Source of the DNA: Saccostrea cucullata
Taxonomy: Eukaryota
Reading direction: 5' to 3'
DNA length: 64,000 bases
Assembly (NCBI RefSeq): GCF_032062105.1
Contig: NW_026935947.1
Coordinates: forward strand, 310,001-374,000
Each line of letters opens with the position of its first letter. The stretch's first letter is position 1. Shown in pieces: positions 7,605 to 58,288 of the stretch. A model generated the notes under the pieces. It ran no database searches, had not been told where the DNA came from, and saw nothing but the letters and a program-made list of their open reading frames with translations. A program made the position numbers and the translations under genes.

Positions 7605-8863
7605 CTTCTCATGGTAGAAAACGTATCCCTGGGCCTCATCCACCGAGTTTCCTACAGACACAAAATGTTGACAGTTATAAATCACAACATGGTCGCACTC
7701 CATCATGTTTATAATCCTTAGAAACACTAAGGAAAACCTCAACAATCTTTCAAATATATACAAGTACCAGCACGGGCGAGATTATCCCCACTTAAACAAA
7801 TGCTTCACAAATTCAGAAAAACGTAAGTCCATCATAATTTGAAATTATTACTCAGAAATTCAGCATGCGCTTCACATAATATCCCTTGTTCTAGCGAGTA
7901 CATTTAACACCGAGAGTCAGTGTGGGTTGTAATGTGTTATATCTTCCAACATGAACAAAGTACTTGTTATAATATAGTACATATATAAACCTTGTGACTC
8001 AGCAGCTAGCCACCACAAAACCTTGCATATATCCGTACACAAGTTTAAGAACTTCATACAAACAGAAACAAACTGCTACAGTACTACAATAAATCAGTCA
8101 TGTGAGCTGTGTATTCAACTATTTGAACTTTATTTATAAAAACTTCCCTAAAATGATAATGTTGGCAAATACGAGAGTCCCATTGATTGCACTTCACAAT
8201 AATTTATGACATTTTTTCTGAAAATTAGTTTTATGATATATGTACTACATGTAAATCAATTAAACCTGCAGTGCTATTTAAATTATGTACGTATGATCAT
8301 GGTGATATTAAGTGTTGTTTAAATCTCGTAAAAACTTTCTTCCCTTTTGAAACACAGGTAGCCGAAAACAAACTTATTTCACCTGTTATCATTTTCTCCT
8401 TAAATTATAATTCTACATTTTACTAGCAGTTACTGACACTGCCTATTTTAAAATATACTGTAACTGATCTTTATCCTTTTTCATATTGAATATTCACTCT
8501 GAATTTCCCTTTATTCTCAAACCGAGCCCTTTCTTCCTGTGTCATAGTCCACAAAGTTAAAATAGGAAGTATTTCAACTAACAAAAGCTTTCATATTAAC
8601 CCTTAATTACCTTTATACACCTAGTGATTAAAACAAATATACATAAATTTTTGAAAAGCATGCTATCTTTTTATGCTATTTACTACATTAAATTTCAGCC
8701 TCATGTTGAAATTTAGTTGCATTTTTCTTGCATGTCAATCAGGATTTAACCAACTCATAAATGTCATAAAACCCGATCTGCTATACACAGATGAAGTTTT
8801 TTCTACTTCAAGATTAGACTGTCAATTTATTTTGCCTTATTATATTTACCCAGCATGATATCA

Positions 8864-9087: not shown

Positions 9088-9095
9088 GAGGAGAG

Positions 9096-11225
9096 ATGAC
9101 TTCTAAGCTGAAGGCAGTAAGAGCAGGACAGAGAAGTGCTGTAACCAGACTTCTAAAAAGACTGGATGAAGAAAATGAAGATGCAGAGGAAATTGAGGCA
9201 ATTTTGGAGACATTAAGGGACAAACAGGAAATTCTTAGAGATCTGGATGAGAAAATTCTAACAGAAACAGCAGAGGAGGATATTGAGAGAGAAATACTTG
9301 ATTCAGATGAGTATAATTTCAATCTTAATTCTAAAATGAGAAAATTTAAGAAACATCTGATAGTTCATCGTTCAAATTTGAATCCATCAGCCAACATTTA
9401 TTCAAACCAGAATGACAATTCACAAATTGAAGAAAACAGTCAATCAAGAAACAATTTGAGTGAAAATTCAAGAACTCCTCAGTCCCTTACAAGCTTTCAT
9501 TCAAATCCAAACAGTGGTAACTTTCACAAACTACCAAAATTAAACTTACCCATTTTTGAGGGAAATGTGTTGGAGTGGCAGTCATTCTGGGATTCGTTCG
9601 ATTCGGCTATTCATAGCAACAACACGTTGACAGAAGTTCAAAAGTTTAATTACTTAAAGTCTTTAGTAGCAGACGAGGCATCGAATACCATTTCAGGATT
9701 TGCACTCACACATGCAAACTACAACAGAGCAATTGAGCTTCTACATGAAAGGTTTGGGCAAAAACATAAGATAACTCAGTCTTACATGCAAGCACTCTTG
9801 GACCTACCCACTCCCAAGAATAATCTCACAAGCCTGCGTCATTTTCATGACCAAGTGGAGACATATGTCAGAGGTTTAGAATCCTACGGACAAGCTGAAG
9901 ATACATATGGTTCGCTTCTAGTACCTGTGATTCTTAACAAATTACCTTGTGAATTACGCAAAAATTTGGCACGCGAGCATGGATCTACCGACTGGTTACT
10001 AGGTGACTTGAGAAAGGCTCTATACAAGGAACTTGACATACTAGAAGCAGGAACTCATATGGACACAACAGAAGACCGTGTTACAGCTATTTTCTACATG
10101 CACTCAGAATCCAGTGATGAGCAATCACAACGGAACTACAGTCCTCGGAATCATCGAGTATGTTGTGCATTTTGCAGGGAGTCACATCATACAAGTAGCT
10201 GTACAAGATACACAAAACACAATGACCGGATGAAAATTGTCAGACGAGACAAACTGTGCTTTAATTGTTTAGGGAGACATCGTGTTACAGACTGTCAATC
10301 CAAATCCAATTGCAAAATCTGCAAAAAACGTCATCACACAAGTTTGTGCACTGCTCATAATGCAGTCAAAACCAATACGAGGAATACCCATGGATCACAA
10401 GCAAAGGCTGAACTGGATGCAAAGACCAGGGAAATCAAGAATCTACAGGATGAAATCAAGAACTATAAAAGTGTCATTGCTACATTAGAACAGCAGATAA
10501 CAGCACAGAGGATTTTGACTGAGAAAACCATGAAGGATGTAAACATTTTACATACCCAGTTTGCAAAGCTTCAGGCCAAATTTCATGCACAGTCAATTGC
10601 TACAAAGCAAATGACAAATGAGAATCAAGCTGAAGAGTTGAAGAAAAAAGAAGTTGAAGTTAATACGCTCACACAGGGGATACAACGACTCAAATCATCA
10701 AGAGAGACACCTGGTAGGAAACTTCAGCAAGTGGGCGGAAATATTCATTCAGATGTACAACAGCAGAGAGAAACTCCAAGAGATCAAATTACTGGTTTGA
10801 AGATGGAATCAGAGATATCCAAGAAACTAGATAACGTTCATAAGAATAACCTAGAACAGAGGTACAGAGAGGAGACCCAGGAAAAGATAAACATCATCAA
10901 CCAACTGGAAAAGGAACGAATCCGCTACACCAAAGAGGCCAGCAATCCAACTCAGAATTACGCAGACTATAACAAAGTTCATGGCATGCAGATTGTTGAC
11001 TTCAAGAGGATTTCCAAGGATGACACCAATATCAGGCAACAGGAGAAAACATTCAAAACTTTCAGAGATGTCGAGAGGACATACAGTCAGAACCTCATCG
11101 ACTCACGGGATGAGATCGCAGAGATGAAGAGGAAGGTGAAGATTATGGATCATCATATTGATCAGCATAAGGAGCAAATTCAAGCCAAAGAGAATGCATT
11201 CATCAAGGAGTACTTCGGACATTAG
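9096..11225 (+). CDS. BEL/Pao Gag (DUF1759-type core, three Cys/His knuckles) fused to a CFAP58-like coiled-coil fragment, 709 aa
   Basis: KLPKLNLPIFEGNVLEWQSFWDSFDSAIH...QKFNYLKS Gag core; knuckles CAFCRESHHTSSC, CFNCLGRHRVTDC, CKICKKRHHTSLC (10164-10349); aa ~436-709 resemble CFAP58/CCDC147 (QLEKERIRYTKEAS, YSQNLIDSRDEIAEMKRKVKIMDHHIDQHKEQIQAKE). Confidence 0.88.
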   Translation: MTSKLKAVRAGQRSAVTRLLKRLDEENEDAEEIEAILETLRDKQEILRDLDEKILTETAEEDIEREILDSDEYNFNLNSKMRKFKKHLIVHRSNLNPSANIYSNQNDNSQIEENSQSRNNLSENSRTPQSLTSFHSNPNSGNFHKLPKLNLPIFEGNVLEWQSFWDSFDSAIHSNNTLTEVQKFNYLKSLVADEASNTISGFALTHANYNRAIELLHERFGQKHKITQSYMQALLDLPTPKNNLTSLRHFHDQVETYVRGLESYGQAEDTYGSLLVPVILNKLPCELRKNLAREHGSTDWLLGDLRKALYKELDILEAGTHMDTTEDRVTAIFYMHSESSDEQSQRNYSPRNHRVCCAFCRESHHTSSCTRYTKHNDRMKIVRRDKLCFNCLGRHRVTDCQSKSNCKICKKRHHTSLCTAHNAVKTNTRNTHGSQAKAELDAKTREIKNLQDEIKNYKSVIATLEQQITAQRILTEKTMKDVNILHTQFAKLQAKFHAQSIATKQMTNENQAEELKKKEVEVNTLTQGIQRLKSSRETPGRKLQQVGGNIHSDVQQQRETPRDQITGLKMESEISKKLDNVHKNNLEQRYREETQEKINIINQLEKERIRYTKEASNPTQNYADYNKVHGMQIVDFKRISKDDTNIRQQEKTFKTFRDVERTYSQNLIDSRDEIAEMKRKVKIMDHHIDQHKEQIQAKENAFIKEYFGH

Positions 11226-37936: not shown

Positions 37937-40900
37937 ATGGAGCAGAAAGTGTACAAAATCAAAGATAAGAGGGTATTGCCTCATGCCGTTTATTTTATGT
38001 AGTAAAAAACTAATCGCTGTTGATTTTATTTTAAAATTAATTTTAAAAATAGAGAGATGCCTCCATGACAGCATTCATCCTTTCACGCAATGAAATACCT
38101 TTATTCTCAATTTATCCTAATAAAAATGTACATTTATATGCTTTTCCTTTCTTTTTTCCCCTTCATGCATATAATTTGATTTGTAACATTCTTGGTGTAT
38201 ATATGCATCTGGGCTTTATGATATTGTAACCAAGGATCATGCTAGTATTAAATAAGCCTATACATCTCTGGGTGTAGATGTAGAGATGTTTAAATACTCT
38301 AATAATTTATTATTATAACAACTGAAGAATCAGACACATTACACTTCCCTTAAAAGAAGAAGTCCCAGAAATAAAGAAATTGATAAGATTTTATATTTAC
38401 ATTTGCAAATGTTTTCCTTTATATAACACTACTGAAGGCAAGCGTTTTTATAACTGTATATTTACATTTGCAAATGTTTTCCTTTACATAACACTACTGA
38501 AGGCAAGCGTTTTTATAACTGTGTAAATACAGGTTTGGGGTCAAGAGGTCATAGATGTGCGTTTGGATAAACGTTCCACGTAATTTTTCTGTGACGTCAT
38601 AAAGGGTCGTAGAGTCGTTTAGTAGATTACATACATGCCGTTGGGTTTGAAAAATTAACGCATTTCACACGGTAAAAGTAACAATCAGACAAATATAAAG
38701 TATGAATAAGTCACAAATGTAAATATAAGTAATAAGGTATTCATTTTTTGAGTTTTGTTAGATGTAAAACGGGTTGACACATGATCAAATTTCCATAAAG
38801 CCCTTCGGGCTTTATGGGATTTGCAAAGTTTACCAACCCGTTTTACAAGCAAAAAATGATGCTTATTTCTTAGTAAATACAGGATGGGGGTAATGTCATA
38901 TGTAGATTTATTTTGTGATAAAAATAATATCTCTGTGACGTTGCGTTTAGTTTACATACATGCCGTTTTTGAAAAATTAACGCATTTCACACGTTAAAAG
39001 TAACAATCAGGCAAAAATAAAGTAATAATCACAAATGTAAATATAAGTAATAAGGTATCATTTTTTCAGTTTTATGATGTAAGTCCATTATCAAATCTTC
39101 CATAAAGCCCATCGGGCTTTATGGGAAAATGATTTTTTTTCAATAAAAATACCTTATTTCTTAATTAAAGGCAGCAAAAAACATTTTATGCTATTGACAA
39201 CGACATCCCTTTCTTTTTCCTTTTTTGGGGGGGATGAATGTCAAGATTATTTAAAAAATATGTGCAACAATTCTTTGTTGGGAGAGTTTGTTTATCAAAT
39301 ACAATACGAGTGAAAAATTAAATTATCGAATACAAAAAAAAAAAAAAAAAAAAAAACAGAACACAAAATTAATAAAAAATATACAGTACAAATGAAAATT
39401 TTTACAGTGCAATTGGAAAATTATAGAATGCAAATAAAAATTATACAAAACAAATGGAAAAGGTCGAATGTAGCAGCATTTGAATGCCATAATATGAATG
39501 TATGGAAAATATTCTCATTTTTATGGAGGTTTGGTATTTAAACTGATTAAAACTTTTTTCCTGGATGAATATGAGCCATTAATTGAAATTATTTTTTATT
39601 TCAGGGACTGGTCTCTTCTGGACCCCAGAAACAGGTGGCACCAGAGCCCAGACAGGTGTGTTGATTCTGTTGATTGGTAGTCAGTCACTGAGGTCTAGTC
39701 ATTTTCACATTATCCATATGTTCTTTATCCCCAAAAATGTTAAGATTAAAAAAAATAGCAAGTTCATGATAATATATTTTGAATTTAACGAATATATAAT
39801 TTGTACATTACCAGTATTTATCAAATATTACTGTAATAACATGTATAAATATATGTAAAATATTAATATATTTCAGACATGTGATAACCCAGATGGGACC
39901 ACACCAGGAGGAAGTAACTCGCCTGACCAGGTATATTGTAAAGTACAGAATATATAACATTTACAAAACTGAATAATTCTCAATTTTTAATTTTTTAAAT
40001 TCTGGTGTATTTTAATTTTCCTTTGTATACTGATATTTTTTCAATTATTTAAGAAAAAATATGAACTATACAAAATTCATGAAAATATATTCATTATCAA
40101 ATGTTCATTTCCAGTGTGCTTATATTTATTAGATGTAAAAACTTTCATATTTACTTTGTAGGCTGTACCCAAGAAGAGACGGTGGCGTCCATATAACAGA
40201 GTGTGGAGACGCGACCAGAAATGGACCAGAGAGGTCAATTCAGTATTATTTTATAATTATTCTGATTTCATAGACTGATTGAAACTTTGAAAATTAATAT
40301 GAATATTTAATTGTTGTTTTTTCTTTTTTATTGTAGGGACTGACATATCCCAAAAAATTAGATTTAAAAAATTGAAAATACATGATATATACAGGTGTGT
40401 TCAATATATAACATATATTCAATATTATGTGATATTACATGTATATCAAATATATTACATGTATTATTATTATACCTGTATAATATTTCAGACATGTGAT
40501 AACCCGGCTGGGACCACATCAGGAGTTGGAAACTCGCCTGTCGAGGTATATTGTAAAGTACAGAATATAAATTATAAAACTGAATTCATGTGTATTTTTG
40601 TAATTTTTCTTTGTATAATTATGATATTTTATCAGTCATTTATTTTGTACATTGTATTATTACCTAAGAAAAAAAATATAAACTAAACCAATTCATGAAA
40701 ATATATTGATTATCAAATGTTCTGTAATAGAATACTTATCTAATAAAAGTAAAAAAGTACTTCATAAACCTATACTATATTTTAAATTACTTTGTAGGCT
40801 GTACCCAAGAAGAGACGGTGGCGTCCATACAACAGAGTGTGGAGACGTGACCAGAAATGGATCAGAGAGGTCAATGCGTATTCTGTATTATTATCAGGAT

Positions 40901-43900
40901 TATTCTGATTTCATATTTTATTAAAACTTTTAAAATTAATATAAATACCTAATTGTTTTTCTTGTTTATTGTAGGGACTGACGTACCCTCAGAAGCCACC
41001 AGTATCACAGGTGTGTTAAATGATAATTCATTACTAAAATATCATTTCCCCTTCATTTTCTACAGTATTGTTGATTAAACAGGGAAGGGTAGATAGATCA
41101 AATACATATGACTTAATTTTAATTTATATACACTTTTATTTCAGAAGTCAGCTGAGCCAGGCGAGGTTTCGTCGGAGACCAGATCACCACCAACTCTGGT
41201 GTCTGACAAGGTAGGGTGCAGAAATAGACTGAATTTATATATATATAATTCTTTTAATAACAATTTGTCCAATATGGTTTGGGGCATATTTAGGGTCTTA
41301 CTGCCCCTGATTCTTTAATGTAATTATTTTATGCATGCTGTATAATGGTATTAATGTGTAGAGGTGCAACACTGATTCCCTTTGTTTTGTAGGTCGTTCC
41401 TAACAAGAAGAAGAGACACTGGACATACAACCGTGTGTGGCAAAAAGACAAGAAGTGGATACGAGAGGTAAGTTTCTAATTTATTTAAAGGGGGGGGGGG
41501 TAATTTTAAAAAGAAAAAATATACAAGTTAATTCTAACTTGAAAAAAAGTATCTGAAAACAATAGTCTAAGAGAGGAATTGCATTAATCTATGGATTATT
41601 ACAGGACAATTAAAAATAATTAATTAATGAATCAATTAAACACATTAAGTACATGCATGTATGAGGTATAAATGGTCACTTATTAAAATAAACATGTTGT
41701 ATCATAGGAGCAGACCCAGCAGCAGGCAGTGCCACCTCCTACCCCGGTACACAGGGACCACCCCACAAAGACACCACCGGTCCCAGTACCCAAACAGGTA
41801 TACATTGAATGATGGCCTTAAGGTTGTCTTGTATTTTTTATAATCATTTACAGGCTATGACGGAAAACCTTGATATCTGATGATTTAACATCAAGTAGTT
41901 ACTAGCACAAAAACCTCACAAATGAAATCTTTTTCAATCTTTTTGTTATATTACTTGATAATACTATATAGCATTTTAACAATATGACTTGTTTTGTAGC
42001 ATGAGCCACCCCCGTTTCTGAAGAAGTACTGGAGGAGAAACAGAGTATGGAGGAGGGACATGGTGTGGGTGAGAAAGGTAAACATGGCACTCTTACAATT
42101 CTCCTCCCTAAATATGATTATAAAATTCTGTCAAATTTCTTAAACTATAATTTTAGTTGCAAGATGGAGGGGGGAGGGGGGTGTTGAAATTAATGATATA
42201 TTACAAGTTTTTTAAAGATAGAAAATTTTCCACACCTTAAATAAAATAAAAACCAAAACAAAGCATAAACCGAGTTGAACTGCCGTCGTGGACTTCTCCT
42301 GTACCAGTATCTATGGATCAGAGAGAAATTGCGGTCAGGCAGTTGTGTGGAATTATGGGTAAAATGTCAAAAGGTAAATTATTTTTTCATCACTGATTAT
42401 AGGGCTGTTAAATGTAATGTACAAATATGTAACACATGAAAATTGTAAATACCATACTTATACAGTACAGGTTGATATTCTATAGTCAATGTCACCTTTG
42501 AATTGAACAGTCTTTTACACTTTCTTTTTTTATTAAGAGGGCAGGCGGTTATTTTTTTTAATCCAGCTTTGATCATTATTAGTTTAAAAAATAATTATCT
42601 GTACTTGGGAAATACCCTCCAAAGTAAATTTGTTTAAGTTGTGGCCTAGTATTTATAATTCCTTTTCCAATTTCCTTTTCATAGCCCACACCAGAGCCAG
42701 AGACTCATGCTGTCGATGAAGCTCAAGTATGTATCTTCTATCATATTTTCAATCATTGATATACCAGTGTATCTTTCAACATACATTAATCATTATCATC
42801 GGTTTTAAGAACTTAATAGTGATCATCTTTCTTTACACAGGATCCCACTTTGGTACCCTCTTCCCAGGAGACTGTATCCTCTTCCACTGACTCTAAGGGA
42901 CAGGAGACTGTTACTGCTGGATCCTCTTCAGCCACTGATGTCCCCCTTGATGATGGAGCACCCTCCCCACCTGCGGCTTCTGATGTTCCTCCCCTCCCTC
43001 CCTCTGATGAGCTAAAGACCATCACTGTCAGGGTTGGTGTAATTTTCAGTTTCTCCTCTGAATGAATCAACCAAAATTTAAGAAAAGCTTTTGATTTAAC
43101 AAAAGCTTCAGGTATTGATGTGTTTGAATTGTGTAAAAATCAATTTTTTATCTAATTTAAAACAAAAACCAATTAGAAATGACAATCATACCCGGTTAAG
43201 GCAGGCAACGAAAGGTCTGAATACTAAAATCGGAACTCGGATGTATATTTTTAAAAAAGCTTATATGTCATTAAAACATCGGTTATTATATAAAATGTTC
43301 ACTGCACTTGTACTAATCTCAGCGAGATGTCGTAGGGACTAAAATATTTGGTCGGACGTCCACTACGTTTTTAGATTACACTTGTACATACAGTAATTAG
43401 GGTTTCCTATGCCTCTAAATGACCTTTATCGCCTGTGGCAGTGTTTATACTGTAATTATCGTGACCAAACACCTGATGTACCTACCCGGGCTTTTCTCAC
43501 CTTCGACTGTCGTTTTCCCTTACATTTAGTTTGCTTTAATTATTTGTTTTCATTGAACATGAATGTCATTATATTTAAACAAATTATAATCAATTCTCAA
43601 GAAGCGTAAAAAAAAAAAAAAATCGTGCGATGATTTTGCATTTGATTACACAATTAATGCAAAGCTTTAAAAATCTTATGTCCATCGTTGCTTAAACTAA
43701 AGATTTACCGACCTAATTTTATTGTGGATAAAAGAGTCTTTTATCGTATAAAGCTCTGTTATAGGATTTGCAAGTTTAACCGTACATATAGCTCGTCTGA
43801 CAACTTTGTTGACATCAAAGCTACATCAAAGGTTACATTACATATTACGGCAGACGTAAACAAAAAAGAACCATTTCTGATTTTATTTTTCGTATTTATC

Positions 43901-44951
43901 TGATAAATAAATTGAACTTAAAAAAATGTTAGAATAAATTTCGTCGGTTACAAAGTGGTCATAATTGTTACAACGCATTTAATATCCATGCATACAACAG
44001 TTTAAAATGTTGTGTTATCAATTAACTTGTTGTTACACTTTTGCTAAGGCTGAGGGTCCGAGTAACCGAGTATCAAAAATTGACCGATTTGACATCCCTA
44101 CAAAAAATAATTAGAAATGACAATCATAGCTGCCTTTAGGCAGGCAAGAAAGGTCTGAAAAAGAAATGAAAAAAAAGTTATATGTCAAATGATCATTATA
44201 ACAAAATGTCTTCCTGTTCAGCTGACTGATGGCATACAGAGTGAGGACCAGACAGATGGGGACAGTCGCGGTGGTGCTAGCCAGAAGACCAGTGACCTGC
44301 GTTCTCCCTCTCCATGCTGCACAGAGAAAAAGCAGACAGGGGTTGAGGTACTGGATAAAATCCTACTTCAATACAAATACTGTAGACATACTTTTTTCCA
44401 CGGGGTCATAAATTCCGCGGAATCTCGATTTCTGTTTAATCCACAGGTAGAAAATTACAGATTTTCGGATTTCGGAAAATTACGGATTTTCTAGATTGTC
44501 TCTATGTGCCTTACATTTGTACTAAGTATGACTGGATAAATTTCCGCAAAAAATTTGTGACTGCGTACATAGTGAGTGTAAATTAATACCACGCGGAATT
44601 TTTAAAAGTACTTCAGTCTAGAGTACATTAAGTAACTGTTTGAGGTATATGTGTCTGTATTATAATGCAACAATAATTTTTTTATTTTTCATATTCTAGA
44701 ACCAGTCCACCCGGAAGCGGAAGAGGCCCAGTGGTACTTGTGTTCCCTCAAAGAGACAAAAGACTGCTTTGGTAAACATATTTTTGATTTTAGTCATACA
44801 TTTAAAGAATTTAAAAAAAAAAAAACCTTTTGGAATATATATGTATGTGTATGTATAAAACTTGTTAAATTATAATTCTTTATTGTAGTTTTCACCGATG
44901 GAGATTGAGATGCAATCCCTGGAGCAGATGTTCGCGGCCTGGACCTTATGA
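37937..44951 (+). CDS. Uncharacterised ~392-aa low-complexity protein encoded by 16 phase-0 exons, with four W/R-rich repeats and a C-terminal NLS-like motif
   Basis: Exons 37937-37972, 39605-39655, 39877-39930, 40162-40233, 40492-40545, 40798-40869, 40975-41010, 41145-41210, 41393-41467, 41708-41797, 42000-42077, 42685-42726, 42841-43032, 44222-44347, 44700-44771, 44889-44951(TGA). All are GC-richer islands with AG/GT borders, lengths divisible by 3 and an open frame. AATAAA at 45354-45359. Confidence 0.8.
38390..39170. repeat. Locally duplicated palindromic repeat
   Basis: Two related copies, each with the hairpin CCATAAAGCCCWTCGGGCTTTATGG, plus a short tandem duplication at about 38390-38520. 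Confidence 0.55.
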
Positions 44952-45736
44952 GCTGGGCGCCGGTGTAGGAACTTTTACCTGTGTGACTGTATGTCTGATG
45001 TAAGATGTTTGGGTTGGGATTTTACTTTTTCTGGGTTTATAGATCGTCACACAGGTAAGTGCTGCTATACCTTTGTATATATTTGTACATAGTTCACATT
45101 TTATCACTGTAAATAGTTCAGATTATAGTTTTGCTTACCGGTAACCTTATTTTTTTTCCCAGATTAATGTTTAAAAGATTTACATTTGTTTTGTTTCTTT
45201 ATTTTAGATTTTCTATTTATTTTTATTTTTGATTGTGTTTATTTCTTAATCATGATTTACCGGTATTACGTGTTGTTTGTTTTTTTCCTTTTTTGCATTG
45301 TGAGAATGCTTTACGGTATTTGGAACATTGTAAATACTTGCATGATTTTTTCCAATAAACATAAAACATCTATTTTTGTTGTTGCTGTGTTTTATATTTT
45401 ATAAAGGAGGCAAACAGCAATATTATACTGTCAAGTTGAAAACGTACATTCAAGTGGAAAACATGGAGAAAAGAAAAAATTTTACGACATATACACTTGT
45501 CGAAAGGAAATCCTCTAGTCAGGATGGTTTCTATTGTTATTCAGAATTTTTTGTCCAAAGCACCATTTTACTGAAGACAGCAACTTGGCCCTGACACTCT
45601 CTCTGACTTATGATTCTACAGAATTCTCATCTAACTATCTTCTGCCTGATAGCAAGTCATGGCTGTACTATAACTGCAACACTGTTGGTATCAAACAATT
45701 GGACATGTTTTTCTAAGTGGGCTGGATGGTCTTTTT

Positions 45737-48700
45737 TCAGTGCAGAAGTCTGTTGTATTCAGCCATCAGTTGTGATTTCTTTACAGCCTCAAATGTTCTT
45801 GCTGCATAATGAAACCTACAAAAGCCGAGAATGACAGAAAGCCTCAGCAAAGATTAAAAAGCCTGGATAAAATAATGAACAAAAAGCTGGAGGCCCAAGG
45901 GCCTTAATGGTTGCCCGAGTATAATACAAAGGATCCACAGTATAACTAGGTACTCAAAGTTTACAAAGCTTACAAATTTTGCCTTGAAGTAAGGAAAAGT
46001 TCCATATTAAACTAATAATCTGGTTATGCACATCTCAAGATGCAACATTTAAGCAATCTTGATCAGATAGGACTAGCAGTTACTTGGGAATGAACTTATC
46101 CAGAAGCTTCAAACTCAAACTCGCCTCAAACTCACTCATTCAGAAAATTCATTCAAATCCAGCATCTGATGTTAGTGTTTATCCCTTGATGCATCACCCA
46201 TGCAAGTGAAGTTCAGATAAGCTTTATTGTTTCGTAATGAAAAGAAACTTCTTGAGAATCCAGCATCTAAAGCAAGTTTAGTAGTAGGCATCCTTAGATC
46301 ATGATGTATCATCGATTCAAGTTTGGTCAAGATACAGCAAATATTTACTTTAGAATGAACAAGCTCCAAACACTTTAACCTGTTCCCTCATCCAGAAAAT
46401 ATAGGTTGGATCCAACATTAAAAGCAAGTTTAGTAGAGTGCATCCTTAGATGTATTACCTATTCAAGTCTGGTCAACAAAACTTTAACCTGGACACTCTA
46501 CCATGAAACATAGGTCAGATCCAACATCCGAACAGCCTAGTAGTGTTTATCCTTGGACGTATCATCCATGCAAGTTTGGTCAGCGTAGGGTTTATAGTTA
46601 TTTTAGAATTTGTCCAGAAAAAGTAGGTCAGATCTAGCATCCACAGCAAGCATGGTAGCATGCAGCCTAAGATGATCCATGCCAGGTTGGCCGACATAGG
46701 GTTTATAGTTACTTTTGAATGAATCTGCTCCAAAAACTATCACCTGGTCACTTGTTCAGAAAATGAAGGTCAGATCCAGCATCCGAAGCAAGTCTGGCAG
46801 TGGGCATCATTAGATGTATCATCCATTCAAGTTTGGTAAACATAGGGCTTACAGTTACATGTATTTGGAAAAAGGATCTGCTCAAAAACCTTAACCTGCT
46901 CTAACACATTATCCTGGCCATACTATTGCTGAAATTGCAGCATTTGAAAACTTGGCTGATACAAGGAAACACAAGGAAAGCATCTTCCATGCATTTCTGA
47001 TTAATGTTGGGCAAAGAAGTACTTAGAAGGAAAACTGCATCTAAAACATTAACCTGGGACACTGACACCAATGCAGAGGGTATCACATAAGCTCCCCCAA
47101 CTTAGTTGAAGTGAACATGAGAAAAAGTGATAGATGATAAAGCTATGTCGCCCAGAATCAAAATAAATCAGATGACCAAGGAACAGCAAAATAATTAATG
47201 TATTATTCAGTAACATATGTAATAGCATATCTACGTATTTGTTTTTATCAGTACATTCTCCCATTTGTTTCTATCACCATTCTGACTAACAAAACTGCTT
47301 CAGCACTAATAGAATACCAATTGCATTCCCTCTCACATTGGTCTCTCTTGTGTTCTCAATTTTGAAGAGAAACATTTGCTTATCATGGCTTTGCACTTAG
47401 TTTGCTTAATATCCAGGAGAAGGAAAATGTTCAAGGTATTTATAGAGTTCACTAAATGCTCATTTCAACCCTACCCTAATTGAGAATTCCTGACTGTCGG
47501 GCCACAGCTTATCTTAAATGGTAAGAAGAGGCAACCTTGCTCATTATAATCAGACACAGTAAAACTGGGTTATAACAAAGTTTTCTCTGACAATGTTGTG
47601 TCCGTAATTCGTTATATCCGGCATGGAATCTGTTAAATTTATATGTTTCCAAGATAACTTCGCTATAACCAGTGTGGTAAACTAGGGTAGCCTCTGTACC
47701 TACATTAACAGGCTTATTATACTGTGGAGAGAAGAGGAAAGAATTTATGCATTTCACCATATGTTCATTAAACTACAGAACCCGACCATTGGGCCACAAT
47801 TTTTAGAAAAATTGCTTTCAAATACTATACATTTTTATTTACATTGTCCCATATGGTTGAAGAGATTATCTATGTAATATTTATGATGCTAAATTGACAC
47901 AGTTTGCTGGGAGATTATGTTACTTGCAATCTAAAAATGATTGCAAAGAAAGTGAATAGAATCTGCATTAAAAAAATACTGTTGATGTAATATTTCCACA
48001 TTTCTTCAATATCTACTTCTGATAGTTTAAATCTACTTTTTAACCAACCTTGCTAACATGTATGCAGCCAGATGATATTTGATTACTGTAAACCAACTTT
48101 ATTCGCGACGACTTTATTTCGCGATTTATCGGGAGTAAACTAGTTCACAACGAGTAATTTTCGCGATCAAGTCTTTCTGGAACTATTTTTGATAGAAAAA
48201 GAGACTTTAGGGACCAGTTCGCGGCGAGAAATATTCGCGATGACAATGTTCTTGCGAACCTCGCGAAAATTTCTTGCACGCGAATAAAAGTTGGTTTACA
48301 GTATCACTTACCATGAGATTCTTTCTTATTTTCCATATTTGGAAACAGATACAAGTTGATGTCGGTTGGCTGATGTTTCGGTAACCCTGACAACAGGTTT
48401 CCACTTGCCATAGACACTTCCCCTGCAAAACATTAACAAAGCAAGGAAAGTGAAACCAAGGGAGATAACTTCAACTGGATCGTTAGAAATTGATACCATT
48501 GGTACCTTTTAATTTGAGCTTTGAGGTCTCCAGCATCTTGGAGAGTGTTGTTTGCATAGCCTGGTGTGTTTCTCTGCTGAAATGATCTCTGGTGCATTTG
48601 TTCTGCACGAACACTATAAATAGTAAAACTTATTTGATTAAATCACAGAGTGTATGTAATTCTTAAGTTTATTTTTAAAATCATGAAATAATTGACTTCT

Positions 48701-51700
48701 TAAACATTAAAATTTCTTTGCATCAGAAAACCAAAGAAAAAAAGTTTTGAATTTCAATTATAAACAAGAGGCCCACAGGCTTTATTGGTCAAACAAGTAT
48801 CATGTATCAACTTTTGTGAAAGTTTTCAACCAGAGGCCATGAAATCAAAGGTTGAAAGAGGCAGCATCGCTCATCATAACTATACGCTTGGTTTGACTGC
48901 TTAATTCCCAGAGACAGAGCAACGGATCAAAGAAATAATGCATTTTCACAAACACTACAAATGATAAAAATTATTCGATTAACCACAAAGTGAATGTAAT
49001 TCTTTAGTTTATTTCTAAAATCATAAAATAACTGACTTCTGGAACATTAAAATTACTTTGCATCAGAAAACTGAAAAAATGAACCAGTTAAACAAGACAG
49101 AATAACATTTAAAAATTTCATGTTTCAAATGAACATTTTCAACCTGAAATTAAAGTTTGAAAGAGGCAGCATCGCTCATCATAACTATACACTTGGTTTG
49201 ACTGCTTAATTCCCAGAGGCAGAGCAACGGATCAAAGAAATAATGCATTTTCACTATATTACAGTAGTATCACCACCTCACAGGAACCCATGGCACTGGA
49301 GCCACATATTTCATAATTTTTAAAAAGTCATGCTTGCTCATCATAACTATGCATTCAATTTGTTCCTTTAATACTCAGGAGCAGATAAAATGTTTGAAAG
49401 ACATAGTGCATTTTCACTATATAATCAACAGAGCCCCACCATAGCACCAGAACGCTTGACCCTGAATTTTGTAATTTTGGAAAAGGCACCCTTGCTAATC
49501 GTAACCTTGCACTTTGATCGTCAGCTTACTTCCTAAGAGAAGAGATTTTTCAAAAGAATAAAAATTAATTTTCACTTAGTAATCATTACTGCCCTGCTCT
49601 AACACCAGAATCCCAGACCCAGGAGCCATGACATTCACATTTTGGATGAGGCACTCTTGCTCATCATTATCATGCACCCAGCTCATTGGCTTCATACCCA
49701 TGAGGAGATTTTCAAAGAATTAAAGCATTTTCACTTTTTAATGATAAGATCCCCACCCAAACACCAGAACCCCTGTCCGAGGGGCCATGGAATTCATAAT
49801 TTGAAGGAGGCACCCTTCCTCATCAACTATGCATTTACACATAGTTTGTTTAACTCCCTGGAAAAGAGAAAAAAGATTTTTGAAAAGAAATAATTCATTT
49901 TCACTATATATTCAACAGAGCCCCACCCTAGCACTAGAACACCTGACCCTGAAGCTATGAATTACACAATTTTGGTAGAGGGCTCAATGGTTATTACAGT
50001 CCTGCCAACAGTTTCCTTTCTTGATGTTTGGGAGTAAAGAAGAATATTTCTACAATATGCTTTTAACCCCACCCATCAGGCCTCCGTGAAGGGAGCCAAA
50101 AATTTAATTTAACAATTTTCACATTCCTTCACCAATAAATGATATTTGTCAAAATTGAAATTGGTTCAGTGGAACCAAAGAGTTCACATGAGTAAACTCA
50201 GGTGACCTAAAAATTTAATCTGTACCTAGAAGTTTGTGATTTTGAATTTTTGTAATTTTGATTGAAAAAACTGAACATATGCAAAAAGGACTTGTATTTG
50301 AGACTCATGATTGTGTCTGGAGTAGTTCAGGTGACTACAATATCTTCAAATGTTTTCACATAAACCAACCGATTCTTGGGTAGTAATCATTAGTGTCCTC
50401 AGATCCTGATGAGCTATCGTGACTGGAGGAGGGGGTGGAGGGCTTCAACATCTCAGCTGTCTGTAGAAATCTGTCAAACAGACAATTGTAATGAATAAAA
50501 AGAAACCAGAAGTCTCTGCTGAGACTGTAGCTCTACTGGTCTGTACATATAACAAAGGAAAGGCAGCACTTGGATTTGAAACTTTGCAACAGACAGCAAT
50601 AAACAACTCACCTGATTAGATCAATATCTGCAAAATGGACCAGCCCTTAACAACCGACTTGATAAGATTAATATCTTGTACCAGTCTTGAACTACTCACC
50701 TGATAAGGTTGATATCTGTGAACCACTCACCTGATAAGGTTGATATCTGTGAACCAATCTTGAACAACTAAGATAATGTGACACACTGACATCATGAATG
50801 CTGCTTGGTGCAGGGACTGAAATGAAAACAACGATAGCTATTTAGTACATATACACAGGGTAAAATTTTATACAAATCATTACCCAAGACATTATACATG
50901 TAATTGAAAAGGAGAAGCAGTGCATTTGTTGCATTTAAAAATTATCTCCATTCACACAGAGAGTTGTTTTCCTTTTATAGGTCAGTCCTGTACCCGTACG
51001 ACCTTAACATTCAGAATCAAGACAGAGTTTAAACTGTAAAGATGAGTGCTTTGCTCAGTCACCTGCATTTCCACACAGTTTTCAGCAGTGCTGTACTCTG
51101 GAGGGATCTTTTTCTCTTGTCGAATCATTTTGTCAAGAACAGATGGGCTCATGATTGGCTGAAGAAAAAAAGAAACAATAACTGTGTTTGCATCAAGATG
51201 GCAAAATAGAATACATGGAATTATTTTACCCCTGTAAAAATTTGTCAACTTTCAACAAATAAAAAATTAGACAATACTGAGAAACAGATTTTATTGGATC
51301 ACATTTGTACCTTTGCTCTAACAAGTAAAATGGCAATGAAATGTAAATTTATAGAAATGGCAAACCTGAGAATCTAAGAATATAGTTCTCTCTCCTGTCA
51401 CAAACATATTAATCCCACTGGTCTGGTGTTCACATAATTCTTTACTGTCTCTACTTTGTGGTGGAAATATGTACTGCCTGTCCCATGAAAAAAATTCTAA
51501 TTTTATTGTCCATTCAAAATATATCTAGGTGCATATAAAGTAAAGGTAACTAGTACATTGTATTCTCATCTTTAAAGGTACTCAGAGAGGACTACTTTGC
51601 CCTGGTCACTCATCTGAAAAATTGAGGTCAGATCTAGCATCCAAAGCTAGTCTGGTAGTGTTCATACCTAGATGCACCATCCAAGCAAGTTTGGTTGGGG

Positions 51701-54700
51701 TAGGGCTTATTATAACTTGGGAATGGACTTACTCCTCAAACTTTAACTGGGACACTGATGCTAAGGCTGACACCCATGCTAGGGGTATTGCATAAGCTCA
51801 TTCTGACTTTGTTGAGGTGAGCTATTCTTGAAAGGGGCATTAAACAAAAAAAAAGTTTTCTATGATAAAAATTACATTTCATTGTTGTAAATAAGTCCCA
51901 TTCCAGACTATTGGTGAAATTATTCTATACTGGAAATTAATCACCTTGTACTGTCTGAGGGGTTGTTTCCTGCCAGCAGAGATAATATGGTGGATTTTCC
52001 AGAACCCTGAAGTCCAAGAACTCCTACCACAAAGAAATCTGTTTGATCCAGTAAAACCTATAACAGAGATACAACAGAGTTACCAATTTACCAGTGAAGT
52101 AAAACATACAACAGAGTGAGATAAATCTTCAAAAGAGAGATTAAACCTACAACAGAGTGAGATAAAACTTACAACAGATTGAAATAAAACCTACAACAGA
52201 GTGAAGTAAAACCTATAAAAGAGTGAGATAAACCTACAACAGATTGAAATAAAACCTATAGACCTTAAATAGAGTGGGATAAAACCTACAACAGAGATAA
52301 AATCTATAACAGAGTGAGTTAAACCTACAATAGATTGAAATAAAACTTAAACAGAGTAAGATAAAATCTAACACAGAGTGAGGTAAATCCTAAAGTGAGA
52401 TAAAACCTACAAAAGAGTGAGATAAAATCTACAACTGAGTTAGATAAAACCTACAAAGGAGTGAAGTAAATTCTACAACAGAGTGAGATAAAACCTACAA
52501 CAGAGTGAAATAAAACAACAGAGATAAAACCTACAACAGAGTTAGATAAAACTTACAACAGAGTTAGATAAAACTTACAACAGAGTGAGGTAAATTCTAC
52601 AACAGAGTGAGAAAAAACCTACAATAGAGTGAGATAAAACCTACAACAGAGTGAGATAAAACCTACAACTGAGTTAGATAAAACCTGCAACAGTTCGATA
52701 AAACCTACAACAGAGTTAGATAAAACCTACAACATACAACAGAGTTAGATAAATCCTACAACAGAGGGAAGTAAATTCTACAACAGAGTGACATAAACCT
52801 ACAACAGAGTGAGATAAAACCTACAACAGAGTGAAGTAAATTCTACAACAGAGTGAGATAAAACCTACAACAGAGTGAGATAAAACCTACAACAGAGTGA
52901 AGTAAAAACTACAACAGATTAGATAAAACTTAGAAAAGAGTGAAGTAAATTCTACAACAAAGTGAGGTTAAATCTACAACTGAGTTTGATAAAACCTACA
53001 AAAGAGTGAAGTAAATTCTACAACAGAGTGAGATAAAACCTACAACAGAGTGAGATAAAACCTACAACAGAGTGAAATAAAGCTTACTACAGAGTGAGAT
53101 AAAACCTACAACAGAGTGAAATAAAGCTTACTACAGAGTGAGATAAAACCTACAACAGAGTGAGATAAAGCTTACTACAGAGTGAGATAAAACCTACAAT
53201 AGAGTTAGATAAAACCTACAACAGAGTGACGTAAAATCTACAACTGAGTTAGATAAAATGATGTCCAAGAACTCCTACCACAAAGAAATCTGTTTGATCC
53301 AGTAAAACCTATAACAGAGATACAACAGAGTTACCAATTTACCAGTGAAGTAAAACATACAACAGAGTGAGATAAATCTTCAAAAGATGAGATTAAACCT
53401 ACAACAGAGTGAGATAAAACTTACAACAGATTGAAATAAAACCTACAACAGAGTGAAGTAAAACCTATAAAAGAGTGAGATAAACCTACAACAGATTGAA
53501 ATAAAACCTATAGACCTTAAATAGAGTGGGATAAAACCTACAACAGAGATAAAATCTATAACAGAGTGAGTTAAACCTACAATAGATTGAAATAAAACTT
53601 AAACAGAGTAAGATAAAATCTAACACAGAGTGAGGTAAATCCTAAAGTGAGATAAAACCTACAAAAGAGTGAGATAAAATCTACAACTGAGTTAGATAAA
53701 ACCTACAAAGGAGTGAAGTAAATTCTACAACAGAGTGAGATAAAACCTACAACAGAGTGAAATAAAACAACAGAGATAAAACCTACAACAGAGTTAGATA
53801 AAACTTACAACAGAGTTAGATAAAACCTACAACAGAGTGAGGTAAATTCTACAACAGAGTGAGAAAAAACCTACAATAGAGTGAGATAAAACCTACAACA
53901 GAGTGAGATAAATCCTACAACTGAGTTAGATAAAACCTGCAACAGTTCGATAAAACCTACAACAGAGTTAGATAAAACCTACAACATACAACAGAGTTAG
54001 ATAAATCCTACAACAGAGGGGAGTAAATTCTACAACAGAGTGACATAAACCTACAACAGAGTGAGATAAAACCTACAACAGAGTGAAGTAAATTCTACAA
54101 CAGAGTGAGATAAAACCTACAACAGAGTGAGATAAAACCTACAACAGAGTGAAGTAAAAACTACAACAGAGTTAGATAAAACTTAGAAAAGAGTGAAGTA
54201 AATTCTACAACAAAGTGAGGTTAAATCTACAACTGAGTTTGATAAAACCTACAAAAGAGTGAAGTAAATTCTACAACAGAGTGAGATAAAACCTACAACA
54301 GAGTGAGATAAAACCTACAACAGAGTGAAATAAAGCTTACTACAGAGTGAGATAAAACCTACAACAGAGTGAAATAAAGCTTACTACAGAGTGAGATAAA
54401 ACCTACAACAGAGTGAGATAAAGCTTACTACAGAGTGAGATAAAACCTACATTAGAGTTAGATAAAACCTACAACAGAGTGACGTAAAATCTACAACTGA
54501 GTTAGATAAAACCTACAAAAGAGTGAAGTAAATTCTACAACAGAGTGAGATAAAACCTACAACAGAGTGAGATAAAACCTACAACAGAGTGAAATAAAGC
54601 TTACTACAGAGTGAGATAAAACCTACAACAGAGTGAAATAAAGCTTACTACAGAGTGAGATAAAACCTACAACAGAGTGAAATAAAGCTTACTACAGAGT

Positions 54701-57359
54701 GAGATAAAACCTAAAACAGAGTGAGATAAAACCTTAAACAGAGTGAGATAAAACCTACAATAGAGTGAGATAAAACCTACAACAGATTGAGGTAAAATCT
54801 ACAACTGAGTTAGATAAAACCTACAACTGAGTTAGAAAAAACCTACAACTGAGTTAGATAAAACCTACAACAGAGTTAGATAAAACCTACAAAAGAGTGA
54901 AGTAAATTCTACAAGAGTGAGATAAAACCTACAATAGAGTGAGATGAAACCTACAACAGAGTTAGATAAAACCTACAACAGAGTGAGATAAAACCTACAA
55001 CAGAGATAGGTAAAATCTACAACTGAGTTAGATAAAACCTACAAAAGAGTGAAGTAAATTCTACAAGAGTGAGATAAAACCTACAACAGAGTGAGGTGAA
55101 ATCTACAACTGAGATAAAACCTACAAAAGAGTGAAGTAAAATCTACAATAGAGTGAGATAAAACCTACAATAGAGTGAGGTAAAATCTACAACAGACTGA
55201 GATAAAACCTACATCAAACTGAGATAAAACTTACAACTCAATCAAGTAAGACCTACAAAAGAATGAACTAAAACCTACATCAGAACAAAATAAAACCTAC
55301 AACAGAAAGAAGATAAACCTACAATAGATTGAAATAAAACCTACACCAGAATAAAGTAAAACCTACAACAGAATGGACTAAAGCCTACAACAACAGAATG
55401 AAGTGAATCCTACAACAAAATAAAGTAAAATCTGAAACAAAATAACATAAAATCCCCAGCAGAGTAAAGTAAAACCTTCTTGCACAACTCACTTAAGATA
55501 GACACTTAACATCACTGATAAATTTTATGGCCTGAAAATCTCCATCATTTGGTAATATATTGGCACATATCATGTGATCAAAATAAATCTTGTTAAGATT
55601 GAGATATTGACAAAAAGATTCTAACTTCCATTCCTGCGTCGCTCCATTGATGACAGTCGTCTACAATCCTTATGCTTTGGTTCATTTCAAGGGGAGCAGA
55701 GAGTCGACTGGATCCTACAATAATATAAGTACACAGTTAAAGTTAATTTGAAGGAAGCTCTAAATATTAACAAAAAGTGGTTGAAAAGTTGAAAACATCA
55801 CAGACTGAAGTCCTTAATAATACTATTTACAATGTATATCAGTAATTTCTCTTTTAAATCAACTGCAAAGGCTAAGGGTCCTAGGTTTGTGAACCAATCT
55901 CCATGTCCTTTACAAAAATTACTTTGTAAAAAGAGATGTTTGTAAAACACTTATGCCCCCCTCCCCAAAATAATTAGATTTTTTTAAGTCCAAGGGGTAT
56001 ACTGTAAAATCACATATTTTCGTGGGGTCAAATTTTCGTGGTTTGAGGAAAAAATGTTGGTTCGTGGGGATTTGATTTCGTGGATGAAGAACTTTTTAGT
56101 AGTTGTGCATATGCAAATTTACATTTCGTGGTGGACATAAATTCGTGGGTATCTTCATACCACGAAAACTAAACCCTCACGAAAATTAGTGATTTCACAG
56201 TAACTTTCTCAGAAAGGGCTCGATCGTACCCAAATCAGAACTTGACCTCGATATTCATTTGATAAAATATGTATACTAAATTTCATTTTAGTATGTACAA
56301 TGGTTGTGAAGAAAATGAACAGAAATTTATGATTTCTAAGGTGCATTTATATTAGTTGAAGTGATTAAGGAAAACACTATTCTATGGTATATGTTCATAT
56401 TAAAAGAATTGACACAAAAACATTCGACAGATTTTACCATCCGTCTGGACGATTCCTGCAGGAATTCGGTGCGAGGCTGAGGGGATCTGAGATGGAGTAG
56501 TTTCCCCTGATGGTACAGAAGCTGAGCTTGATGGGAATGTCTCATCTCTTGGTCTTATCGCCATGACAACAGGCTTGTCTGGCTTGTTTGTAGACGAAGT
56601 TGAAGATGGGCTCGTACTAAGAGTGCTTCCACCCTTAAAAAATGCATTAAAATCAGGTAAACTGAACATTCTAAGTGTAGAAGTAACTTTTTTAAATTGG
56701 TATTAAAATTGGTTAATAAACAGAGACATAAATAGCAGTGATGTTCAGATGTTCAGAACTTCAGGATAATAAATATACTGGTATGTTGCTGATCCTATTG
56801 CATTGTACATGCATTTTTGAATTCATGCACTATATGTTCTTGCAAGAATATCTACAAAAGTTTAAACAAAAATAAACTTGCTTTGATTTAATTGAAATAT
56901 TACAGATAAAAACGTTCTTCATTTAAAGTCGGCACATTTCAGGCTTCATGCAGTTAATGCAACTAACACAATGTCATGTGACGTCAGAGTCTAGACACAC
57001 CATATATGTCATGTGCGGTTTGACGTGCCTGATCAAAATTAAAGTTGAATAAGTATCTGGGCTATCCCTAACGGTTGCTCTTTCAACATATTATGTGAAT
57101 TGCCATAAAAAATATTCAAACCGAGTCCAGAGCAGCAGGTTTGGCCAAAATGATAGTTGGCTTTGATGACTGGTAATCTCCATCATATGCCTCCCTTTCA
57201 ATCTGAAATAGAACACATAAATCTTAACTTTATAGCAGGGTTCATTAATTTTATGTCTTGTGATAAGTGATTATTAACCTTTCTATTGCCACTGTTTGGA
57301 CCACCGCCCCTTCTCCTGGGTCTCCTTCTACCTCGATCTCCTCTTTCTGGGTCAGACAT
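45737..57359 (-). CDS. SMG9: Nonsense-mediated mRNA decay factor SMG9 (spliced; penultimate exon looks corrupted in this sequence)
   Basis: Exons 57359-57279, 57202-57122, 56633-56438, 55714-55626, 52057-51945, 51477-51366, 51158-51063, 50816-50731, 50470-50370, 48613-48506, 48422-48312, [~47700-47579 damaged], 45815-45737. Motifs: LLDQTDFFVVGVLGLQGSGKSTILSLLAGN (P-loop), IFLDSQPIMSPSVLD, SVCHIILVVQDWFTDINLIRFLQTAEMLKP, WFHYAARTFEAVKKSQLMAEYNRLL. Confidence 0.93.
45877..47117 (+). mobile_element. Degenerate HINE-like element with internal tandem repeats
   Basis: GAGGCCCAAGGGCCTT 5' motif; recurring CAGATCCAGCATC...CAAGTTTGGT units. Confidence 0.5.
48086..48301. mobile_element. Tc1/mariner-type MITE, 10 bp from an SMG9 splice donor
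   Basis: TIR CTGTAAACCAACTTTTATTCGCG / CGCGAATAAAAGTTGGTTTACAG, TA flanks. Confidence 0.85.
48765..50212 (+). mobile_element. HINE-like element with degenerate tandem units
   Basis: AACAAGAGGCCCACAGGCC start, repeated CATTTTCACTAT...CACCAGAAC units, CTCAGGTGACCTAAAA end. Confidence 0.55.
52050..55480. repeat. 22-bp minisatellite (GAGTGAGATAAAACCTACAACA)n in an SMG9 intron
   Basis: About 3.4 kb of tandem units, including a 1251-bp-offset block duplication. Confidence 0.95.
56002..56200. mobile_element. Tc1/mariner-type MITE
   Basis: CTGTAAAATCAC...GTGATTTCACAG termini, TA flanks, internal TTCGTGG motifs. Confidence 0.75.
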
Positions 57360-58288
57360 TATCCTGTTTTAACGGCAATTCTTTAAGTCAATCAAATTAT
57401 TTCTGATACCACGCTATTTAAATTTAAAGGACGTCTTCTGGCTCAGTGACTGGCGTCTGGCCACTGGCCTACTTTCATTTAACAAATTTGAGTATTCCGA
57501 ACCCGACACATTTAAATATGATAAATGGGTTTGACTTTCTCATTAAGATGCACATCTCTTATTTTATCCACTCCATTTTCGGAAGAAGTTGCACAAAAAT
57601 ACTCTTTCGACTGAAAAATATTTCGTAATAAGTAAAATTAAATATAAATAATTTTAAAAATAAGAATCTGCTATCTAGAACAGTTTGAGTATTTCAAATG
57701 TTCTGCAATAATAATAACCGCCTCCCCCTCTTTCGTAGCGTTTTTCTTTATCATAAATGTTTTTGACGGACACAAGCTACTATTTAGTGGATATTACTAA
57801 AAAAAAAATTGTTTTATTCTATTTCTTTTTGAAAAAATGTTTTTATTACCATACTAAATTACTGTTACAAAACTTTTATAAAAAGATTTTAAATAAATTT
57901 TGTTTCATTTTATTGCAATTTTCATTACGATGTTTCATAGTTTTACGACCAAATCTCTAATAAACAAATGCTCTATAAATAAATGATCATACATAAATGA
58001 TGATGATCCGTTATTTTTCCCCTTCTACCCGGCAAAATTGCTTGCGATTGCTTGAGAGTTGAAATACAAATACCGCAATATGCATATTTATTTCCTATCT
58101 AGCTTGTAACACGAGCTTTGATTGGTTACAAAGTCGGGTGTAAATATCCGTGCACCCGACTTGAGCCGGGTGTAAATAAAACGTGACGTCACAATGCATA
58201 CATTCTCTATGATAAATATCTTATCGATAGATTGAGACACACTTTGATGTTTACAAAGCATTCTTATGGATACAAAGGAAATAAATTC

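Follow-up and report, generated by a model that had tools for sequence, protein, structure and literature searches.

A family of oyster proteins with a short Trp/Arg motif, predicted to be disordered nuclear adaptors whose valency changes by symmetric exons

A 64,000-nucleotide stretch of the Saccostrea cucullata genome (contig NW_026935947.1, positions 310,001 to 374,000; hereafter the window, numbered from its first letter) carries a 16-exon gene on the forward strand whose product belongs to a protein family restricted to oysters. By sequence comparison the family is real: its members share a short linear motif rich in Trp and Arg, apparently undescribed so far, whose copy number changes at the level of exons. 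The predicted features suggest that these are probably disordered nuclear proteins acting as multivalent docking adaptors. That chromatin is the docking surface is a more tentative proposal.

The gene model over 37937-44951 (+) was rebuilt directly from the letters of the window. Each of the 16 exons has a length divisible by 3, every one of the 15 introns runs from GT to AG, and the reading frame stays open over 392 codons with no stop or frameshift. Fourteen exons measure 36-90 nt and the remaining two 126 and 192 nt; GC content is 0.54 in exons vs 0.28 in introns. A sequence-only reading of this DNA had proposed 16 mostly 36-90 nt exons, each a multiple of 3, and the RefSeq protein XP_062582563.1 (P0002 in our set) bears this out with an exact, in-order match to 13 of the 16 exon translations. 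The RefSeq model lacks exons 5 and 6 and takes its 5' end from further upstream, through an exon at 36998-37057. The span first proposed thus holds all 16 exons and misses that upstream exon, together with two upstream copies of the promoter and first exon. The features of the gene are as follows:

37937-37972 (+), exon 1: ATG at 37937, 36 nt, donor intact; the first exon of the sequence-only reading
39605-39655 (+), exon 2: spacer, skipped in paralog isoform P0004
39877-39930 (+), exon 3: spacer
40162-40233 (+), exon 4: motif, subtype A, in a derived form with one additional residue and WRPY
40492-40545 (+), exon 5: spacer, duplicate of exon 3
40798-40869 (+), exon 6: motif, duplicate of exon 4 with 69 of 72 bases the same; not in the RefSeq model
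40975-41010 (+), exon 7: spacer
41145-41210 (+), exon 8: spacer
41393-41467 (+), exon 9: motif, subtype A
41708-41797 (+), exon 10: Pro-rich spacer
42000-42077 (+), exon 11: motif, subtype B with a Pro-Pro lead; two short predicted helices with a break near the invariant Asn
42685-42726, 42841-43032 and 44222-44347 (+), exons 12-14: Ser/Thr/Pro linker
44700-44771 (+), exon 15: bipartite motif KRKR-x7-[SN]KR, resembling a nuclear localization signal (NLS)
44889-44951 (+), exon 16: 17-residue terminal amphipathic helix and stop; predicted to resemble a nuclear export signal (NES) or to bind an effector
45354-45359 (+), first AATAAA 3' of the stop, a candidate polyadenylation signal

That all 15 introns are in phase 0 is confirmed in the DNA, and would have a probability of 6e-6 to 7e-8 if the introns were independent. 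This figure overstates the surprise, because several exons are duplicates of one another: DNA homology links exons 4, 6, 9 and 11, exons 3 and 5, and the upstream 60-nt exon with exon 8 (0-3 of 300 shuffles). Much of the pattern is explained by duplication of symmetric exons.

A six-frame scan of the 64 kb found the motif in four places only, exons 4, 6, 9 and 11; these, the NLS-like exon and the terminal helix all read as originally described. Across 25 family proteins the motif occurs 70 times, in 29 distinct contexts that are related copies and not independent. Its core is W-x2-N-[RK]-[VI]-W-[RK]-[RK], usually followed by D-x2-W, so that a Trp recurs every six residues. In the 22 contexts with W-x2-N spacing, for which W, N, [RK], [VI] and W served as the selection pattern, V or I at -1 from the second Trp, R or K at -2 and R or K at +2 are each present in 22/22, and D at +3 and W at +6 each in 19/22. 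An Arg or Lys stands 8 residues ahead of the second Trp in 23 of the 29 contexts, and the net charge per motif exon is +7 to +8. Two subtypes are found, A with a Lys/Arg lead and B with a Pro-Pro lead, both ancestral. Of the consensus of the sequence-only reading, basic-W-x2/3-NRVWxxDxxWxR, the D-x2-W tail is absent from subtype A in Magallana and Ostrea. Additional R-D-R-V-W units follow the first motif in P0025 of Crassostrea virginica, where what follows exon 1, at the position of subtype A, has a decayed look, and these units suggest a six-residue building block, [ND]-R-V-W-x-[RK].

The earlier failure to recognise the motif as a known domain stands. Pfam scans gave 0 families for 10 of 10 single exons and 5 of 5 full-length proteins, and a profile search of the PDB gave 0 matches at E up to 10. 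Foldseek and VIA-align found no match for a 42-residue model of subtype B, which is small and weak (pLDDT, the predicted local distance difference test score, 59). Neither of two ESM Atlas queries returned a usable feature match or a structure above the bar for naming. Viral contigs yielded 21 pattern matches with 0 confirmed, and metagenome contigs 3, with 2 confirmed and 0 loci returned. A literature search found no paper on the motif words or on LOC105347336 and two further LOC identifiers. LOC105347336 is also absent from the marker and differential lists supplementing the oyster gonad and embryo papers PMC12551290, PMC10987912, PMC8353863 and PMC12722230; other supplements and subscription papers may hold expression data.

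The window itself provides a natural comparison of motif and spacer exons. A tandem duplication of about 620 bp at 39726-40988 (+) pairs 39726-40350 with 40346-40988 at 73% overall identity. Its first half carries spacer exon 3 and motif exon 4, its second half their duplicates, exons 5 and 6; a stub of exon 7 at 40337 has no donor and runs into a stop before reaching one. By its sequence this duplication is recent and is the origin of the fourth motif. Motif exons 4 and 6 are identical at 69 of 72 bases (96%), with 2 silent changes and 1 replacement, vs 364 of 430 aligned columns (85%) in the duplicated introns (Fisher p 0.009). The duplicate spacer exons 3 and 5 share 45 of 54 bases and differ by 8 replacement changes and 1 silent change. 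This suggests that the motif exons are constrained and the spacer exons are not; such constraint in turn suggests that exon 6 is used despite its omission from the RefSeq model.

Relatives were found in five oyster species: S. cucullata, Ostrea edulis, C. virginica, C. angulata and Magallana gigas. A profile of the four motif exons matched 5 S. cucullata proteins among 9 candidates. A wider profile, run over 1.84 billion representatives at E <= 0.001, gave 7 matches, namely 4 from S. cucullata, 1 each from M. gigas and O. edulis, and 1 that was dropped. Two more profiles, at E up to 10 among proteins of 75-2000 residues, matched 11 of 2,266 and 11 of 6,493 candidates; every match came from oysters, and C. 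angulata and C. virginica were added. Apart from one spurious match, these searches of annotated proteins found no relative outside oysters, at thresholds below which single-motif relatives could fall. P0013 (E 5.7e-4) was rejected: it is a 15-fold repeat, aligned over 10 of 25 profile positions and without the N-[RK]-V-W core. No profile match carries a precomputed Pfam domain. Besides XP_062582563.1 at the window locus, RefSeq members include LOC105347336 (M. gigas), LOC128165938 (C. angulata), LOC144625298 (C. virginica) and LOC130047813 (O. edulis). The names given to such proteins (SRRM1-like, mucin-like, proteoglycan 4, uncharacterized) seem to derive from nothing more than composition. 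The S. cucullata matches lie on separate contigs, and some may be alleles. The gene had been called a lineage-specific orphan; it is indeed oyster-restricted, with relatives across four genera, so orphan is no longer the right word.

Annotated proteins carry 1-5 motif copies. Their subtype order is AAB in the S. cucullata models, AAAB in the window DNA, AB in O. edulis, BB in C. virginica and ABA or ABABA in Magallana and C. angulata. Valency change through duplication, as the sequence-only reading proposed, is therefore visible both in the window DNA and among annotated proteins. For exon skipping, the other route it proposed, the record is mixed. RefSeq multi-isoform sets are generally transcript-based, and the M. 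gigas isoforms have 3 motifs or 1 by clean deletions, X4-X6 retaining one A; the S. cucullata sets, however, skip spacer exons only.

Disorder is predicted throughout most of the protein, as had been claimed. AlphaFold2 (12 sequences) gave a mean pLDDT of 49.8 and a predicted template modelling score (pTM) of 0.16, and the ESM Atlas model a pLDDT of 0.40. Helices appear in the AlphaFold2 model only at 183-191 and 193-198, in subtype B, and at 351-367 (pLDDT ~87). The KRKR-x7-[SN]KR motif is kept in 20 of the 25 family proteins and in 5/5 species, although its linker is shorter than the 10-12 residues of a textbook bipartite NLS. Its conservation suggests a nuclear location, as originally proposed. 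The last 17 residues follow M-E-x2-[MF]-x2-L-x2-[MV]-F-x2-[WLF]-x-L in 10 of the 25 proteins, from Saccostrea and Magallana/C. angulata; an acidic activation or effector helix would fit them as well as an export signal. The linker of exons 12-14 has a net charge of -14 in the window copy and 0 to +10 in other genera, so its charge is not conserved.

We propose that the protein would be imported by its bipartite NLS-like motif and that each Trp/Arg motif would dock on the same acidic surface, most likely chromatin. The motif would fold on binding, with W, N, V/I and W making a shape-specific contact and the Arg and Lys residues meeting an acidic patch or DNA. The number of motifs would set avidity, the terminal helix would recruit an effector or an export receptor, and valency would be tuned as exons are duplicated or skipped and through the tandem first exons.

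Several observations weigh against this proposal. The CENP-C core, sought as R-x4-P-x2-[YWF]W, occurs in 0 of the 29 contexts, so the link to chromatin rests on charge, a partial resemblance and the NLS-like motif. This last is missing from five S. cucullata models, and 15 of the 25 proteins, the O. edulis and C. virginica models included, do not show the terminal pattern. The constraint test concerns one exon pair, with gap columns left out, and its result could also arise from gene conversion. Since the RefSeq model of the locus omits exons 5 and 6, the four-motif form may not be produced. Mapping artefacts may account for the one-motif isoforms of M. gigas, as the skips join near-identical tandem units. 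In a bolder form of the proposal, which we consider improbable, the protein would be an oyster invention that reads nucleosomes in the manner of the CENP-C/KNL2 motif, though not descended from it; its grip on centromeric or germline chromatin would be retuned by addition, loss or skipping of single phase-0 exons and by switching between tandem promoters, making this a gene of genetic conflict whose avidity is set by splicing.

It is possible, if somewhat unlikely, that the motif docks instead on a single soluble partner such as calmodulin or an enzyme, and that the whole protein is a multivalent sponge or inhibitor. Short, basic, Trp-anchored motifs that form helices within disorder are typical of docking sites, and the short helices predicted in subtype B fit this picture. 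However, no candidate partner emerged. As usually written, the RVxF and PY-NLS patterns each match 2 of the 29 contexts, and both identities were rejected; WRPY-type patterns also match 2/29.

A shuttling RNA adaptor of the arginine-rich-motif type, in which structured RNA would be the ligand of the motifs, import would go through the NLS and the terminal helix would be a CRM1 export signal, seems unlikely. The motifs are indeed basic and rich in Arg, Trp and Asn, and one copy holds the hexapeptide KKKRHW, in common with the HEXIM1 RNA-binding peptide in PMC2995076, but this hexapeptide is found in just 2 of 25 proteins. The S. cucullata and Magallana proteins close with a five-position NES pattern that runs up to their final residue; when the last 20 residues were shuffled, this happened in 0.25-1.9% of 20,000 trials. 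PMC3442415 describes the CRM1 class 1a signal as hydrophobic spacing 1-x3-2-x2-3-x-4 in a disordered acidic setting. This spacing is present at the last residues of 10 of the 25 proteins, in the window copy only if Trp is allowed at position 3, where a paralog has Leu and Magallana has Phe. Trp at the third core position is disfavoured, and the five-position consensus has a precision of 9%, according to PMC3442415 and PMC4596688. The invariant Val and Asn between two Trp would also be more like a pocket-filling motif.

The 5' region of the locus is repetitive. The promoter and 36-nt first exon are present in three copies, with ATGs at 22943, 36033 and 37937, all open and with donors. The upstream features are:

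22785-22978 (+), promoter copy 1 and first exon (ATG 22943), open, donor intact
33547-33606 (+), second copy of the 60-nt spacer exon, in cassette 1; a 9.6-kb insertion lies between it and its first exon
35829-36068 (+), promoter copy 2 and alternative first exon (ATG 36033, 36 nt)
36998-37057 (+), 60-nt phase-0 spacer exon, residues 11-30 of XP_062582563.1 and a DNA homologue of exon 8
37738-37972 (+), promoter copy 3 and first coding exon

The 60-nt phase-0 exon follows the first exon in cassettes 1 and 2, and none precedes exon 2 in cassette 3. Copies 3 and 2 are 92.5% identical in their upstream part vs 83% at the adjoining intron start (Fisher p 0.024), and their first exons differ by 4 replacement and 0 silent changes. 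The copy-2 first exon is the best match in the window to the N-terminus of paralog P0008 (11 of 12 residues). The paralog isoforms P0008, P0004 and P0007 contain both early spacers or either one, with clean deletions of 17 and 20 residues. In a diverged S. cucullata paralog with two annotated first exons, the first 12 residues are not the same in RefSeq isoforms P0009 and P0010, and the shorter lacks the next spacer exon, a tandem first-exon layout like that of the window. Words resembling the cAMP response element (CRE), TTACGTCA, TGACATCA and TTACGTCT, are retained among the promoter copies at 22795, 22812, 35898, 35936, 37789, 37806 and 37844.

Cassette 1 is interrupted at 23494-33086 by the 9.6-kb insertion. 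Its terminal inverted repeats have arms of 85 nt (96%), its ends read TGT...ACA, and a CCGG is duplicated on either side; the uninterrupted copy near 36566 has a single CCGG. We take its ends to resemble those of Ginger-type DNA transposons. A nested element at 23902-26830 has 562-nt inverted arms, 97% complementary and spaced by 1805 nt, and a tandem array of a longer unit lies within the insertion at about 29070-30830.

Broken 5' cassettes, the insertion and the donor-less exon stub are what one would see if the locus were a decaying, non-functional duplicate that owes its conserved look to recent duplication or gene conversion; the replacement-only changes between first-exon copies 2 and 3, and the several S. 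cucullata models that look truncated, point the same way. We think such decay improbable, since 16/16 exons are free of stops and frameshifts, all splice sites are canonical, the motif exons appear constrained, and the motif and NLS-like motif are kept over four genera. Least probable is a Groucho/TLE-recruiting repressor or HEXIM-derived decoy acting through WRPY copies: W-[KR]-P-Y occurs in 5 of 25 proteins, exons 4 and 6 included, but all five belong to one S. cucullata subgroup, PYNT and the HEXIM Trp spacing are each found in 0/25, and there is no Pfam family. Since the site has no Pro in the other Saccostrea subgroup, Ostrea, Crassostrea or Magallana, WRPY is a derived form. The Groucho/TLE WRPW/WRPY class, in the familiar form [WFY][KR]P[WFY], matched 2 of the 29 contexts, in one subgroup, and was rejected.

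Other features of the window were noted in passing. Intron 11 holds a GC-rich open stretch of 42 codons at 42262-42387 (+), without a Pfam match and with a borderline likeness to exon 6 (1/300 shuffles, 17 exons tried); it is perhaps a decayed or cryptic exon. A 711-codon single frame at 9090-11225 (+) matches DUF1759 (E 2.4e-41) and a CFAP58 coiled coil (E 6.2e-21), and looks like the gag-type frame of a retroelement fused with a coiled coil captured from the host; it runs in the opposite direction to its neighbour gene. At 3075-7781 (-) are large coiled-coil exons, with sub-threshold Pfam coiled-coil matches only, of a gene resembling cytospin-A/SPECC1L. In M. gigas, specc1la is LOC105332653, a number far from LOC105347336, which hints weakly at a lack of synteny for the family. 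A gene for a P-loop protein (51944-52057) resembling SMG9 has its exons at 48300-57400 (-), and a tandem array of a short A-rich unit occupies about 52050-55400 in one of its introns.

The gene was already annotated, under a misleading label drawn from its composition, and no match to its motif turned up in Pfam, the PDB, Atlas clusters or the papers searched. What the family offers is a short, constrained, oyster-restricted linear motif in a natural series of 1-5 copies, which makes ligand and avidity testable with peptides. Should the partner be chromatin, farmed bivalves would possess a nuclear regulator that arose within their own lineage, with a valency that evolves one symmetric exon at a time. 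Multivalent disordered proteins from symmetric exons are known as a general kind; the motif and the description of the family appear to be new.

By analogy, the nearest working model for the oyster motif is that of CENP-C, given in PMC4830207 with the core R-x4-P-x2-[YW]-W. With CENP-C and KNL2 (M18BP1) the oyster proteins would share a short basic motif in disorder, an Arg upstream of Trp and a fast-evolving host protein, and W-R-x-[DE]-R-[VI], in 7 of the 29 contexts, is like the tail of the CENP-C consensus in the same text. A known nucleosome binder has its Arg 9 residues ahead of the Trp (PMC10015371), whereas in the oyster contexts Arg is commoner at -8 (21/29) than at -9 (9/29). Pro at -4 and an aromatic residue before the Trp each occur in 0/29, no strand is predicted, and 5/5 full-length proteins have no cupin or other Pfam family. 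Without the core and the cupin, the oyster proteins are not members of the CENP-C motif class.

Three features resemble HEXIM1 (PMC2995076, PMC12901311): KKKRHW in exon 9, the W-[KR]-P-Y of exons 4 and 6, and the succession of a basic and then an acidic region in S. cucullata. The first two, in 2/25 and 5/25 proteins respectively, with the full HEXIM spacing in 0/25, are limited to one Saccostrea subgroup; PYNT is lacking, the linker does not stay acidic in other genera, the only long helix is the 17-residue terminal one, and there is no coiled-coil Pfam match.

The sequence-only reading had likened the gene to micro-exon genes. Those of Schistosoma (10.1101/2023.06.21.545858) have 10-20 short exons, 6-81 nt long and in most cases 15 nt, the majority divisible by 3; their isoforms are diverse, and their proteins have a signal peptide and are secreted. 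The likeness holds for exon symmetry (16/16 multiples of 3). It fails for exon size, the oyster exons being 36-192 nt, and for destination, given a conserved NLS-like motif and basic, polar N-termini. By hydropathy, the sole measure applied to the N-termini in place of a signal-peptide predictor, the best 8-residue value is <=0.7 in 7 of 11 proteins (Saccostrea, Ostrea, C. virginica) and 1.99 in 4 from Magallana/C. angulata.

The sperm bindin of M. gigas differs in having folded F-type lectin repeats and an acrosomal location, unlike the 15-25-residue linear motifs without a Pfam match described here. Its splicing nevertheless sets the number of repeats, from one to five, according to the review PMC5712786, and bindin would thus be a precedent, by analogy, for a splice-set repeat number in oysters.

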